Of a stretch of 6,704 nucleotides of DNA, positions 2,851-6,704 are shown piece by piece. A program made the position numbers and the translations under genes. The stretch lies in the IMG/VR virus record IMGVR_UViG_3300008227_000002; one strand, given 5' to 3'. Source of the stretch: a virus. Under the pieces are notes generated by a model. The model was not told where the DNA came from. It worked only from the letters and a program-made list of their open reading frames with translations, and did not search any database. Within the stretch, counting starts at the first letter, position 1. Each line of letters begins with the position of its first letter.

Positions 2851-2992
2851 AAAGTGCAGTACTACATACACGCACTTTACATATATTGTGATTTAAGCAG
2901 AGTTGATACGTTAGAGAAGAGCAACATCGCATAATAGCGAATATGTAAAATAACGCCCGTGTGGGAAATTCTACACGGGCATTAAGATACAT
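2849..2992 (-). CDS. Speculative 47-aa Cys-rich ORF overlapping the dif-like region
   Basis: My translation: MYLNARVEFPTRALFYIFAIMRCCSSLTYQLCLNHNICKVRVCSTAL. SD-like CTGGTGA precedes the ATG at 2992. The stop TAG (2851-2849) lies inside the - strand terminator hairpin. No promoter was identified, and an ORF of this length could be open by chance in AT-rich DNA. Confidence 0.2.
   Translation of the reverse strand: MYLNARVEFPTRALFYIFAIMRCCSSLTYQLCLNHNICKVRVCSTAL
2924..2951 (+). other. dif-like XerC/XerD site (candidate attP half 1): ACATCGCATAA-TAGCGA-ATATGTAAAAT
   Basis: It has the 11+6+11 architecture. Against E. coli dif GGTGCGCATAA-TGTATA-TTATGTTAAAT, the XerC arm matches 7/11 (the CGCATAA core is intact) and the XerD arm 9/11. 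Confidence 0.55.
2955..2980. repeat. GC-rich hairpin at the apex of the palindrome (10-bp stem, 6-nt loop)
   Basis: GCCCGTGTGG (2955-2964) pairs with CTACACGGGC (2971-2980), including one G-T wobble. The loop is GAAATT. Confidence 0.7.
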
Positions 2993-3018
2993 ATTCACCA
3001 GCTCACATTATGCGAAGT
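2991..3018 (-). other. Inverted dif-like site (candidate attP half 2), read on the - strand: ACTTCGCATAA-TGTGAG-CTGGTGAATAT
   Basis: The XerC arm has the TTCGCATAA form. The + strand ACATTATGCGAA (3005-3016) equals the last 12 nt of the TATACATTATGCGAA attP/dif core reported for Xanthomonas filamentous phages. The central region begins TGT, as in dif. The XerD arm is degenerate (4/11). Confidence 0.55.
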
Positions 3019-3415
3019 TTCAGAATAATTATTTTAACGTCCAATTTTTAGTTTATTTTAGAAAAGTAACCATTTTGAATAGATTTACTTTACGATCTAA
3101 TAGCAAACGCTACCCTCGGAAGTCTTTTATAACTTCCATAAGTAATTTTTTTAACATACAAATCCTTATTCACTTAATTAAGGATTTTAAGCAATACGAA
3201 CATTTAGAGATTAGTTCCGTAGACTATAGAGAGTTTTTTTATTCAGTTAATGGCCGAGGGTATCAGGCTACACGAACCTGTAAAGATTAATGAATTAAGC
3301 CAAAGAGAATAAATGACATGAATTAATTGAGAGTTACATAATTAATTAATATTGACAGAACCGCTACACCTGATGAGTTAGCCATTAACTTAATCAAAAA
3401 AAGAAGGTGTAGAAA

Positions 3416-3622
3416 ATGACTTTATCAGATGCAATTATGATTTATACAAACAATAGAACAGCATCAAACGCAGAACGCGCATTTAAAACAATAGCAAAAT
3501 ATACGGCAGATGAAGAAGCAAACAGTCACAACATGAACGATGTCGAAAGAAATCAAATAGAAGCAGATGTAAGAGAAGATCTTGAAAATTTATACTATAA
3601 AGCTAGAGAAAACATGCTTTAA
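3416..3622 (+). CDS. Hypothetical acidic 68-aa protein in a stand-alone cassette
   Basis: RBS AAGG 8 nt before the ATG. A strong terminator begins 6 nt after the stop. It is on the opposite strand to the phage core genes. I recognise no motif. The sequence is predicted to be largely helical and charged. Confidence 0.65.
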   Translation: MTLSDAIMIYTNNRTASNAERAFKTIAKYTADEEANSHNMNDVERNQIEADVREDLENLYYKARENML

Positions 3623-3627
3623 ATATT

Positions 3628-3654
3628 AAGAGGCTTAACAGCCTCTTTTTTTTT
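3628..3654 (+). terminator. Rho-independent terminator
   Basis: The stem AAGAGGCT (3628-3635) pairs with AGCCTCTT (3640-3647), with loop TAAC, and runs into a T-run to 3654. An A-rich stretch upstream may give weak bidirectional activity toward Zot-operon transcripts. Confidence 0.85.
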
Positions 3655-3900: not shown

Positions 3901-5037
3901 TTATGAGTGTATTGAATTAAGTGAATCAGGATTAAAAATTAAGTCGGGTTGTTTTCTGAGTTTAATATAAACATAGCAGACTAACTTAATACACATTCTA
4001 TCTAAACTGGTTTTTTTATAAAATTCTGTAGGAATTGAGAAAGGTGGACATTTATAGATAGTTTTGCTTAAAGTACAAGTAGGCGGGATTAAATGATACT
4101 GATCTTGAGGGATTCCGTTAGAGGCCCATTCATAAATTAATGCTTGGTTAAGCTCTTCGGGCTGAATATCAATATTAGAGTCAGGATATATAAACGGATC
4201 GGATGGAATTAAATTAGTATTGGTAGCAATATCTGTAATTTGTGTGGGTTCAGTTATTTCTATTTTGCGTTGATTGACTCTGAAACCAATTAAAACAATT
4301 ACAAGCAGTAAGACAGGAAGAGCATAAACAGCCATTGGTATTTTTTTAGTTTGCTTTGTATGTAAAGAACTAGATTCATACATACCAAAAACTTTTTTAT
4401 TGAGTTTATAGGTAGATTTAACCCCCGTTGATAATGAGTTTAAAGAATCTTGGCATTTTGGGAACTCGTACTGGTAACGACCAGACCAAGTAGACGTTAT
4501 ATGAGTGTGTTTACCAACCAAAAGCCTTACCTTTTTATCAAATAATAAGGGACTTTGAGTCATTAAAAAGAAGTCTAGACCATGATGTCTATGAGTTGTT
4601 AATAGTGCTATAGAGTCAGGTCGTGGGGAGGTATCGGCCTTGGTAGGATAGACAAAATGTACTTCATCATATATCAATAAAGCACCCTCGGGACTCCATT
4701 TATCCCAATCCTCAGCAAGTAGGTGTTTATTATATTCGGCTAATTCTTTTTCGTACCGTCTAAACTTAATTTTGTAATTGTTTAAATCAATAGCATGTTG
4801 TTTTAGTGTTAGATCATGGCAATCATAAGGAGGCTCGAGGGGTTCTACAGGTTCTACAGGTTCAATGGGGCAAACATCACAAAGCGGGCTTTTACATATA
4901 ACAAGAGTGTGGACTAACGTTAATTTGGGTATACCATGAACAAAAAGCGGCCTTCCCTCCTCTATTAGTTCCAGCATTTGAGTGAGACAAAAAGCAGATT
5001 TTCCCGAACCTGTAGAGCCTGAGATTAAATTAATCAT
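3901..5037 (-). CDS. Zot / pI-like phage assembly ATPase, 378 aa
   Basis: Walker A GSTGSGKS at residues 7-14. Walker B-like LLIYDEVH. A single TM segment IPMAVYALPVLLLVIVLIGF comes after the NTPase domain, followed by a periplasmic C-terminal domain. This topology and the position after the pVI-like gene are typical of Zot-family proteins. The start overlaps the upstream stop (ATGA). Confidence 0.9.
   Translation of the reverse strand: MINLISGSTGSGKSAFCLTQMLELIEEGRPLFVHGIPKLTLVHTLVICKSPLCDVCPIEPVEPVEPLEPPYDCHDLTLKQHAIDLNNYKIKFRRYEKELAEYNKHLLAEDWDKWSPEGALLIYDEVHFVYPTKADTSPRPDSIALLTTHRHHGLDFFLMTQSPLLFDKKVRLLVGKHTHITSTWSGRYQYEFPKCQDSLNSLSTGVKSTYKLNKKVFGMYESSSLHTKQTKKIPMAVYALPVLLLVIVLIGFRVNQRKIEITEPTQITDIATNTNLIPSDPFIYPDSNIDIQPEELNQALIYEWASNGIPQDQYHLIPPTCTLSKTIYKCPPFSIPTEFYKKTSLDRMCIKLVCYVYIKLRKQPDLIFNPDSLNSIHS
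4832..4867. repeat. Degenerate 9-bp tandem repeat (about 4 units) inside the Zot-like gene
   Basis: GGCTCGAGG, GGTTCTACA, GGTTCTACA, GGTTCAATG. The two central units are identical. On the - strand they encode PIEPVEPVEPLEPP. Confidence 0.8.
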
Positions 5038-5309
5038 CCTATTTTAGCGAGATTTGAGAGTTGAGTTAAAGAAAGCCTAGTAACAACACAACCAAGAATA
5101 ATACCCAAGCCAGTTGGAAAACCTGCAAGCGAAAAGTAACTTAAAATATCAGACGGTAGACCAGACCAAGAAAGAACAGCAGAATCTATCAAGCCATTTG
5201 TAACAAAAGCATAACCAGCGTATGAAACAAAGCCCATACCAAGAGCTGCAAGTATACGGCTTGGCAAAGAAACAGCAAGCGAACCAAAAAAAGCAAATAA
5301 ACTAGCCAT
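5034..5309 (-). CDS. pVI/Ace-like small integral membrane protein (probably DUF2523-type), 91 aa
   Basis: Multiple hydrophobic segments and the pattern ALGMGFVSYAGY ... SGLP ... GIILG ... RL, which I recall from the conserved protein encoded just upstream of zot in many inoviruses. It overlaps both neighbouring genes. Confidence 0.7.
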   Translation of the reverse strand: MASLFAFFGSLAVSLPSRILAALGMGFVSYAGYAFVTNGLIDSAVLSWSGLPSDILSYFSLAGFPTGLGIILGCVVTRLSLTQLSNLAKIG

Positions 5310-6501
5310 TTCTAATACCCCCCGTTAAGATCATAATCCCTAAAACAGTAGAAACAGCAATAACAACAGGGCTAATACCCGTAGCAAACTGACATAAATA
5401 ACTTGTTGGAACTGAAAAAGAACCTTTGGAATAGGTTGAAACCTGCGGAACTGGACAAGAGGCAGAACTAGCAAAAATAACGGGAGTAAAATCAAAATCA
5501 AGCTCAACATTAGGAATTTCTGTGGCTGCTAATTCATTACCATATTTAGAACAACCGAGAATTTCAGGATTTTTTTCACATACGCTTTTTTGCTCTTCTA
5601 CTGGCTGAGTGTAAACATTAGATTCATTTGAATAACTGTTATTATTTATTTCCGTAGGGTTGGTGGTGGGATTGCTTGAAAGATCGGTATTATAATTATT
5701 TGTTATGTTATCCGCTTCTTGAGAGAAAGGGTCAGTATCAGAGGTTGAAGTATCAGGAGCAGGAGAAGTACCTGAAACACTAGAAGAAGGTAACCCCGTT
5801 GCAACATCTGTAAAAAGATCTTTTAATGTCGAATCAGTTAAAGAGGGTTCTATTTCGTCATATATTTCTGAATCGGTAGGCGTAACCGTGTCGGTATAAG
5901 CAGGAGAACCTTGTGGAGATTCGCCAATATAAGTACCAGGATTCCAAGAACCTCGATGATAGCCAACCGCGTCAGTTGTACGTCGAATAGTATAGAAATT
6001 AATACCTGCGTTCCATTCCATTGTATGAACGTATGAAGCACCAAAACGATTATCATAACCTTGAGTTTGTGCAAGGCATTGACTAGAAGTAACATGCGTA
6101 CCATCACCACGAGAACAACCACCCAATGAAGAACTAGCGTCTTGAGCAGGATAATCTATTTCCTTAGAGACAGTTCCATCATCATTCAAAACATAATCAG
6201 CAGCAAGCAAAGCAGCAGACAAACCCAAACCCCAAGGGCTAAAAGCTAAACGCTTAGCAAGACCACCAGCAGCAGCTTTAGAAATATTAATTGTTCGGGA
6301 TGCATAAACCTTTGCACCCGTTGAAGTAGTGGCTTCATAACCAACTTGGGCAACACCAGCAAGCATAGAACCCAGTTCCGCCTTTCGCATGGCAGCAATA
6401 TTGCGAGCTGAAAAACGACTAGCCAAATCCCAAACAGCAAAAGAGGAAGAAGAAAAAAGTAGAGTAAAAGTTAATACTATTAGTTTGAAATAAGTATCCA
6501 T
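5302..6501 (-). CDS. pIII-like adsorption / minor coat protein, 399 aa
   Basis: N-terminal signal peptide MDTYFKLIVLTFTLLFSSSSFA. A central S/T/P/N/D-rich linker (about residues 225-300). A Cys-containing C-terminal domain ending in the membrane anchor ISPVVIAVSTVLGIMILTGG. It occupies the gene III position. The C-terminal block CEKNPEILGC ... CPVP ... LC reminds me of TspB-type C-terminal domains. This is unverified. Confidence 0.7.
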   Translation of the reverse strand: MDTYFKLIVLTFTLLFSSSSFAVWDLASRFSARNIAAMRKAELGSMLAGVAQVGYEATTSTGAKVYASRTINISKAAAGGLAKRLAFSPWGLGLSAALLAADYVLNDDGTVSKEIDYPAQDASSSLGGCSRGDGTHVTSSQCLAQTQGYDNRFGASYVHTMEWNAGINFYTIRRTTDAVGYHRGSWNPGTYIGESPQGSPAYTDTVTPTDSEIYDEIEPSLTDSTLKDLFTDVATGLPSSSVSGTSPAPDTSTSDTDPFSQEADNITNNYNTDLSSNPTTNPTEINNNSYSNESNVYTQPVEEQKSVCEKNPEILGCSKYGNELAATEIPNVELDFDFTPVIFASSASCPVPQVSTYSKGSFSVPTSYLCQFATGISPVVIAVSTVLGIMILTGGIRNG

Positions 6502-6547: not shown

Positions 6548-6704
6548 TTAGAGAACCCTTTTTATGACTTTGATAGTAAATGCCAAAACAAAAACAGCGG
6601 CAATTTCTGAACCGTAAAAAACAGCGTCAGAAGTTGTAATGCCTGTATATGAATTATCAAAACCTAGAGAAGTACAATCAGGAGGCGTGACAGTGTAAAA
6701 ATTA
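6548..6704 (-). CDS. C-terminal part of the junction-spanning 103-aa ORF (same gene as 1-278; 6582-6704 duplicates 1-123)
   Basis: The reading frame runs from 278 down through position 1 and continues at 6581 to the TAA at 6550-6548. The tail is ...AAVFVLAFTIKVIKRVL. Confidence 0.45.
   Translation of the reverse strand, partial: NFYTVTPPDCTSLGFDNSYTGITTSDAVFYGSEIAAVFVLAFTIKVIKRVL
6582..6704. repeat. Right copy of the terminal redundancy (identical to 1-123)
   Basis: Same comparison. It indicates a circular or tandem template with a 6581-bp period. Confidence 0.95.

Follow-up and report, generated by a model that had tools for sequence, protein, structure and literature searches.

A compact forked hairpin as candidate attP(+) of an uncultivated inovirus related to prophages of methane-oxidising bacteria

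In this study, we analysed a 6,704-nt stretch of viral DNA (IMG/VR record IMGVR_UViG_3300008227_000002; hereafter the window, meaning that stretch at its full length) which holds a filamentous phage (inovirus) genome, and found that a forked hairpin of ~97 nt at 2920–3022 on its minus strand is most probably the attachment site, attP(+), of a temperate phage that integrates like CTXphi. An earlier note, made from the letters of the DNA, had proposed that two inverted dif-like sites form a XerCD-dependent attP in a phage that encodes no integrase. Pfam and PHROG scans of the window proteins bore out the latter point, as no integrase or transposase family was detected among the main open reading frames (ORFs), which matched only Rep (HUH), coat, Zot, DUF2523 and helix-turn-helix (HTH) regulator families. 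The CTXphi-like architecture also stood, every defining feature of it that can be assessed in silico being present. Three details of the proposal were revised: the reading of the second dif-like site, the strand of the fold and the position of the crossover.

Two inverted dif-like sites fold into one forked hairpin

The two dif-like sites lie in a non-coding region, inverted relative to each other, at 2924–2951 on the plus strand and 2984–3018 on the minus strand. The first resembles attP2 of CTXphi and has the canonical 11-6-11 organisation (ACATCGCATAA, TAGCGA, ATATGTAAAAT), matching an E. coli-type dif at 18 of 28 positions (7/11 in the XerC arm and 9/11 in the XerD arm). The second resembles attP1 and reads, on the minus strand, as a predicted XerC-binding arm ACTTCGCATAA (3018 to 3008), a 13-nt central (overlap) region TGTGAGCTGGTGA (2995–3007) and a XerD-like arm ATATGTATCTT (2984–2994), that is, 11-13-11. 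The earlier note had delimited this site as 2991–3018, the reverse complement of which reads ACTTCGCATAA TGTGAG CTGGTGAATAT, and had described its XerD arm as degenerate. That appearance is an artefact, the arm looking degenerate because a 6-nt spacer was imposed on the site; with the 13-nt centre, the outer arm is ATATGTATCTT, eight of whose 11 bases are paired with the arm of the 2924–2951 site. The XerC arm of the 2984–3018 site is identical at all 11 positions to the dif XerC arms of Methylococcaceae genomes, including those of the related prophages described below, and that of the 2924–2951 site matches the latter at 10 of 11. Allowing one mismatch, ACTTCGCATAA occurs twice in the window, both times at the hairpin locus, against an expectation of 0.20, and two or more copies arose in five of 200 shuffled sequences.

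All pairings of the earlier note were recovered. An inverted-repeat search matched 2923–2935 with 3007–3019 over 13 nt (12/13, 92%), and placed the pairings 2939–2947 with 2988–2996 (9 bp) and 2951–2953 with 2982–2984 inside a 24-nt repeat (2939–2962 with 2973–2996, 83%). Between the two sites, the GC-rich cap hairpin (2955–2980) comprises eight Watson-Crick pairs, one G.T pair and one further G-C pair. The forked shape, with 10 nt unpaired opposite 3 nt, was obtained in the folds of both strands; the first base and last two bases of the 13-nt central region are paired, and the 10 nt between them make up the fork's bulge. Folded as single-stranded DNA (ssDNA), the region 2900–3040 reached -26.7 kcal/mol on the plus strand (z -6.4) and -27.0 kcal/mol on the minus strand (z -6.5), stabilities equalled by none of 200 shuffles. 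A scan of the whole genome in 110-nt segments ranked the hairpin as its most stable structure, at -26.7 compared with -6.8 on average (sd 3.4) and -15.2 for the next independent region. No match for the hairpin was found in Rfam, and a simple terminator scan flagged it on neither strand of the window.

Inoviruses package, as the (+) strand, the sense strand of their structural and replication genes. Since these genes of the phage are on the minus strand of the window, its packaged strand is the window minus strand, and the strand on which the fold is to be read was corrected to this gene-sense strand. In the folded minus strand, the XerC arms are paired with each other (ACTTCGCATAA with ACATCGCATAA, with one T.T mismatch), as are the XerD-like arms (ATATGTA...). 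Pairing of the arms recreates a duplex resembling dif: its bottom strand, supplied by the attP2-like site on the packaged strand, has the canonical spacing of 6 nt, and the 13-nt spacer of its top strand bulges out.

Prophage junctions in relatives share one polarity

A genome scan with the Rep protein of the window identified 12 loci, mostly in Methylobacter and other Methylococcaceae, at 55–62% identity. Four of these prophages (L002, L004, L007 and L008) end in a dif of the form ACTTCGCATAA TG(T/C/A)ATA TTATGT(T/A)AAAT, and start 0.5–2 kb upstream of Rep with ACTTCGCATAA, which is followed 80–90 nt on by the inverted arm AC(A/C/T)TCGCATAA. The orientation of their hairpins relative to Rep is that of the window. 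Relatives found through Zot (40–51% identity) carry the same hairpin structure. One such prophage, L019, occupies a site flanked by yjbQ and an aldo-keto reductase gene; the hairpin forms its left end (1981–2070) and GGTTCGCATAA TGTATA TTATGTTAAAT its right end (7640–7667). Two IMG/VR proviruses, L035 and L038, have the same junction polarity. Inspection of prophage junctions, which the earlier note had suggested as a check, thus gave the same arrangement in all seven integrated relatives: a XerC arm with the hairpin, then the phage genes, then a canonical dif, the 11-6-11 site being preserved whole within the prophage in an orientation opposite to dif. This is the arrangement that would be expected if XerC exchanged strands just after the CATAA of the long-spacer site. 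The earlier note had placed the crossover at 2935–2940 or 3002–3007; the polarity of the relatives' junctions shifts its predicted position to 3008|3007 on the minus strand. The dif overlaps of the related hosts are TGTATA, TGCATA or TGAATA, and the spacer of the window phage starts with TGT.

L007 and L008, too, have cellular genes beyond their two ends. L007, in the isolate Methylovulum miyakonense HT12, is a 7.8-kb prophage (7957–15799) which contains Rep and Zot and lies between a TOTE primase-helicase gene and, at its opposite end, genes for QueG, a DUF2252 protein and a hydrolase. L008 is a Methylobacter prophage whose HTH and Rep proteins share 60 and 56% identity, respectively, with those of the window, its HTH gene also being the neighbour of the hairpin. 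GGDEF/EAL and metallo-beta-lactamase genes border one end of L008, and genes for an amino-acid permease and isocitrate/isopropylmalate dehydrogenase the other. Its Rep gene is split into two frames (9735–10672), which suggests a decaying prophage. The different prophage loci have non-syntenic flanks, from which an empty site could not be rebuilt, and the GC-skew of L007 and of another Rep locus, L010, is compatible with a replication terminus, the loci being too short to decide. The outer bases of the XerC arms at left and right junctions are too similar to reveal the host-derived arm except in L019, where the right, phage-derived arm (GGTTCG) pairs fully with its inverted partner and the left arm (TGTTCG) does not, a weak indication from a single position.

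Some further loci have altered arrangements. L061, in which only ~850 bp separate the hairpin from a canonical dif (10021–10956), is probably a deletion remnant. The hairpin of the first element of L003 (9182–9232) has been reduced to 59 nt through loss of the XerD stem and cap, and a second, intact hairpin lies 9.3 kb downstream at the end of the contig (18456–18549), which suggests a tandem array with one decayed copy. An 11-kb ENA contig, L015, was considered as two phages (638–7692 and 7693–11051) joined head to tail at the XerC arm, and this interpretation was rejected after comparison with the circular genomes L071/L016 and L064. The switch from L071/L016-type to L064-type sequence is 85 bp upstream of the second XerC arm. 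Because it falls inside a region in which both phages are 76% identical, L015 is probably a chimeric assembly or a recombinant rather than a Xer-generated array, and it was not used as evidence.

The hairpin is conserved by compensatory change and has a strand polarity

An alignment of 11 hairpins from phages sharing only 40–62% Rep or Zot identity yielded a consensus fold consisting of a XerC stem, an asymmetric loop, a XerD-like stem, a small internal loop and a GC cap. Pairing was retained in 97% of cells and 18 of the 34 pairs had compensatory changes, a result that none of 500 column shuffles reached; when the 3' partners were slid by 1–3 columns as a control, pairing dropped to 31–53%. 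All 12 pairs of the cap helix had compensatory changes among these relatives. The cores TCGCATAAT and TATGTA were invariant, which is what arms that bind proteins would be predicted to show.

A scan of IMG/VR for ACTTCGCATAA-N65-95-TTATGCGA matched 59 contigs, nearly all of them 4–12 kb, and 48 distinct hairpins were taken from inovirus-sized IMG/VR and related contigs. These hairpins are related to each other and the counts that follow describe a trend rather than independent trials: the coding strand folds more stably in 37 hairpins, less stably in 10 and equally in one (Wilcoxon p = 5e-7), the coding strand forms 137 G.T pairs versus 27 for the complement, and in 47 of the 48 it is the 5' arm of the coding strand that has the longer spacer, by 5–7 nt. 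The spacer of the 5' arm always has T first, and usually TGT or TG. A double-stranded palindrome would have no strand polarity, and therefore these trends support the view that the coding-strand fold is under selection and that the site acts as ssDNA. Judged by the literature on CTXphi, an overlap region of 12–13 bp would also make an implausible double-stranded DNA (dsDNA) substrate.

In most relatives (L002–L008 and many of L022–L079), TTTTTT, the complement of the A-rich XerD-like arm, directly follows the GC cap, and hence the sense-strand attP hairpin is also shaped like an intrinsic terminator in most of them. The counterpart of cap and T-run in the window, GTTATTTT, is weaker than in the relatives. 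A distinct clade of hairpins (L034, L050, L068, L072, L075 and L076) has exactly ACTTCGCATAA in both XerC arms and strands of equal stability, and several of its members are from samples with human-microbiome-style IMG identifiers.

Proposed route of integration and comparison with known systems

On the model that the hairpin functions as a CTXphi-type attP(+), host XerC and XerD would bind the folded packaged strand and synapse it with chromosomal dif. XerC would then cut the phage strand after ...CATAA (3008|3007) and exchange one pair of strands, the TGT that opens the phage spacer pairing with the dif overlap, with XerD having a structural role only. The pseudo-Holliday junction so formed would be turned into a prophage by host replication, giving a left end made of the host XerC arm followed by hairpin sequence, and a right end made of the phage XerC arm, the host overlap and the host XerD arm, in which a functional dif is regenerated. 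For the window phage, the model predicts one junction in which ...TTCTGAAACTTCGCATAA is followed by a dif overlap and TTATGTTAAAT, and another in which host DNA runs into ACTTCGCATAA-TGTGAGCTGG; the Zot/pI gene (3901–5037) would be the last gene before the right end. Integration would be essentially irreversible because the double-stranded prophage would mask the site, and new phage would be produced from tandem copies by rolling-circle replication. The window phage is thus probably temperate and locked in place once integrated. These steps, and the expectation that the window phage would still integrate, are modelled on CTXphi and on the prophage junctions of the relatives.

XerCD-dependent integration of filamentous phages is established, including a class which uses an ssDNA forked hairpin and has CTXphi/RS1, YpfPhi and CUS-1Phi as members (PMC4246890, PMC9226527). 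Like the window phage, these Xer-exploiting integrative mobile elements (IMEX) are filamentous phages without an integrase. In CTXphi, attP1 is AGTGCGTATTA TGTGGCGCGGCA TTATGTTGAGG, an 11-12-11 site whose spacer starts with TGTG, and attP2 is AATGCGTATTA TACGCCA TTATGTTACGG, an 11-7-11 site (PMC3089051). In the fold of CTXphi, overlap bases are left unpaired and each arm contains mismatches (PMC3442271), and CTXphi prophages have the host arm and hairpin on the left, and the phage arm, host overlap and XerD arm on the right (PMC3442271, PMC3089051). Both phages have a pair of inverted dif-like sites that lie downstream of a repressor gene with divergent transcription (repressor-like in the window), a (+) ssDNA that pairs the XerC arms together and the XerD arms together (in silico for the window), mismatches in the arms, and an over-long overlap that opens with TGT (13 nt in the window and 12 nt in CTXphi) opposite a shorter one (6 and 7 nt, respectively). 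The position of the hairpin next to a divergent repressor-like gene and a rolling-circle Rep gene was likewise counted as a feature of CTXphi attP(+), and the relatives of the window phage resemble CTXphi prophages in having a regenerated dif at one end and the inverted pair kept at the other. There are also differences. The window hairpin is compact (~97 nt with a simple GC cap), whereas that of CTXphi is ~150 nt with a ~90-bp spacer; its arms resemble the dif of another type of host (ACTTCGCATAA, where CTXphi has AGTGCGTATTA); its Rep is gpII/I2-2-like, unlike that of CTXphi; and the hosts of its relatives are Methylococcaceae, whereas those of CTXphi-type elements are Vibrio or Enterobacteria. 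A more distant parallel is the attC site of integrons, which is also a single-stranded hairpin with unpaired bases as substrate, one strand of which is exchanged and resolved by replication; however, attC depends on a dedicated recombinase, IntI, has different binding motifs and belongs to a non-phage element.

Evidence against the proposed attP(+) and alternative explanations

Several observations weigh against identifying the window hairpin as a CTXphi-type attP(+). Taken by themselves, the junctions are compatible with either ssDNA or dsDNA recombination at the long-spacer site. The two strands of the window fold equally well (-27.0 versus -26.7 kcal/mol for 2900–3040 and -25.1 versus -24.7 kcal/mol for the trimmed hairpin), and for that reason the choice of the folding strand rests on the family. 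The XerD-like arm of the window is the weakest in the alignment of 11, the T that all the others have as the first base of the core being replaced by A, and the outer part of this arm has a 3x3 internal loop. Furthermore, no integrated copy of the window phage, or of any relative with >60% identity to it, was found in the collections searched. An exact-protein look-up of its Zot returned only the free 6.7-kb source contig, a metagenome scan with a 22-mer specific to the right end of the phage gave no match, and one with the Zot protein gave a single 1.4-kb fragment and no integrated copy.

These last observations are also what would be expected of a decayed attP, derived from a functional CTX-type site and no longer working in the window phage. 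Such decay would account for the most divergent XerD-like arm of the set, for the T.T mismatch in the XerC stem and for the recovery of free-form contigs only. Nevertheless, we regard it as improbable, if slightly less so than the explanations that follow. The A at the first position is matched by a compensating change in the partner arm (pair 29/85), indicating continued selection for pairing; the XerC arm and the TGT start are intact, as is the adjacent repressor-like gene; and attP(+) of CTXphi is itself mismatched in both arms (PMC3442271).

A second alternative, which we consider very unlikely, is a double-stranded attP of the VGJphi type, in which the canonical 11-6-11 site at 2924–2951 would be the substrate on the replicative form and its partner and the hairpin would be incidental. 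VGJphi-type IMEX share with the window phage the use of host XerCD at dif, XerC-side homology and the lack of an integrase, and their attP is a 29-bp dsDNA site on which recombination is XerC-first and reversible. The 2924–2951 site alone resembles a VGJphi site, being the only one with canonical spacing and having the better XerD-like arm (9/11 to TTATGTTAAAT and 10/11 to its TTATGTAAAAT variant), and hairpin-less single-site modules exist in this phage group. However, VGJphi-type elements have a single site with no inverted partner or hairpin, and here there are two inverted sites. In the seven relatives with the inverted pair, the polarity of the junctions puts the crossover at the long-spacer site and does not fit use of the canonical one, and the covariation of the stems, the strand bias of G.T pairs and the 47/48 polarity of the spacer would be left unexplained. 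The dsDNA alternatives raised by the earlier note were disfavoured on these grounds. The TLCphi type shares integration at dif, and a relationship with filamentous phages or with satellites of these, but is disfavoured as well: it needs a dsDNA attP with a degenerate XerD arm and the activator XafT for XerD-first exchange, whereas a XerD-like arm is present here once the spacer is read as 13 nt, and the Pfam and PHROG scans (E<=0.01) gave no match to a XafT-like protein among the window proteins.

The two single-site relatives, L005 and L010, were identified through Rep, and their junctions show no hairpin (fold z -0.8 and -0.6, respectively). L005 is a Methylobacter prophage with ACTTCGTATAA TGTATA and non-dif sequence at its left end (8751–8761) and a full dif, ACTTCGTATAA TGTATA TTATGTTAAAT, at its right end (18248–18275); judged by these ends, it appears to carry a VGJ-like module. 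L010, on a Motiliproteus chromosome, comprises two tandem units of 2,985 bp, each with a Rep gene and each starting ACTTCGCATAA TGGATA... (positions 8742, 11727 and 14712), and the array ends in a canonical dif, ACTTCGCATAA TATAGA TTATGTTAAAT. It looks like a satellite-type single-site IMEX array which uses the same Rep family. Types of attP seem to be exchanged between otherwise related phages.

Equally unlikely is that the hairpin is only a structural signal, such as a packaging signal, a minus-strand origin or a terminator, with no part in integration and with a resemblance to dif that is inherited or coincidental. The genome has no second hairpin of such strength, and no other candidate for a packaging signal or minus-strand origin is visible; many relatives have a six-T run after the GC cap, as in an intrinsic terminator; and the window is a free circular genome. 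Yet a structural signal would need neither the 11/11 match to the dif XerC arm, nor the invariant TCGCATAAT and TATGTA cores, nor a spacer asymmetry of 5–7 nt, the hairpins of the relatives are exactly at the prophage/host junction opposite the regenerated dif, and the terminator scan of the window did not flag the hairpin. A second role of the hairpin beside integration may exist all the same.

The phage genome and the surroundings of the hairpin

Positions 1–123 of the window are identical to 6582–6704 (self-BLAST), and removal of this 123-bp direct terminal repeat leaves a circular genome of 6,581 bp. The window is therefore a complete genome, of a free phage or its replicative form, and not a prophage. 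A Joint Genome Institute (JGI) metagenome contig in IMG/VR, Ga0105357_10005464 (L013; also IMGVR_UViG_3300008252_000002), is 99.7% identical to it, with ~0.3% of positions differing. Among GenBank phages there was no near-identical phage, only I2-2 and one other record at 35–42% Rep identity, the window Rep being gpII/I2-2-like with 42% identity to phage I2-2.

The gene set on the minus strand is of the inovirus type. It includes the rolling-circle replication initiator Rep (gpII/RstA-type; 886–1929; Pfam Phage_CRI 1e-47 and G2P_X_C 3.5e-18), which sets the sense (+) strand, the major coat protein B (339–533), the Zot/pI assembly ATPase (3901–5037; Pfam Zot 3e-22), a DUF2523/pVI-like protein (5034–5309), a pIII-like protein (5302–6501) and, at the position of the ssDNA-binding protein gene, a small gene with no family match. 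On the plus strand, an 88-residue HTH regulator (2564–2830; PHROG 4441, E 2e-20, and PHROG 638, E 3e-13) is encoded next to the hairpin, in the opposite direction to the phage operon and pointing away from the Rep operon, which is the position of rstR in CTXphi. The hairpin region is intergenic, as the JGI calls on the near-identical contig L013 place no gene between window positions 2831 and ~3400, and a 109-residue ORF which overlaps it (2961–3290) had no family match.

Other structural features were noted in the genome. The second most stable ssDNA fold (2411–2540, -15 to -17 kcal/mol) is between the HTH gene and the Rep operon, a divergent region with back-to-back sigma-70-like promoters (2508–2481 on the minus strand, with 11/12 matches, and 2502–2530 on the plus strand). 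It is probably an operator/promoter region, and perhaps the plus-strand origin. A terminator-like hairpin on the minus strand (2833–2850) is, on the sense strand, directly downstream of the attP hairpin and ahead of the region antisense to the HTH gene, and another on the plus strand (3628–3647) follows a 68-residue ORF (3416–3622).

Implications for filamentous phages and their hosts

The window phage adds an uncultivated member, with a compact site, to the known CTXphi-type class of IMEX. At the level of the family, the result is a useful but incremental extension, there being dozens of such hairpins in environmental inoviruses and in methanotroph prophages. It indicates that integration of folded ssDNA via XerCD reaches beyond CTXphi/RS1, YpfPhi and CUS-1Phi to uncultivated inoviruses and to prophages of methane oxidisers, with the same rules of polarity. 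The hairpin and dif motif together give the exact borders of prophages that automated tools usually miss, and the XerC arm constrains the prediction of hosts. In addition, the cultured Methylovulum miyakonense HT12, with its 7.8-kb prophage, represents a system in which the mechanism could be tested.

A more tentative suggestion is that the compact ~97-nt hairpin is a widespread, and possibly the dominant, lysogeny device of environmental inoviruses, including the phages of Methylobacter and Methylovulum. As the genome contains no other strong hairpin, and as a T-run follows the cap in many relatives, the structure may double as a packaging signal, complementary-strand origin and/or terminator. 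If this were true, integration, replication and encapsidation would be coupled in one element.

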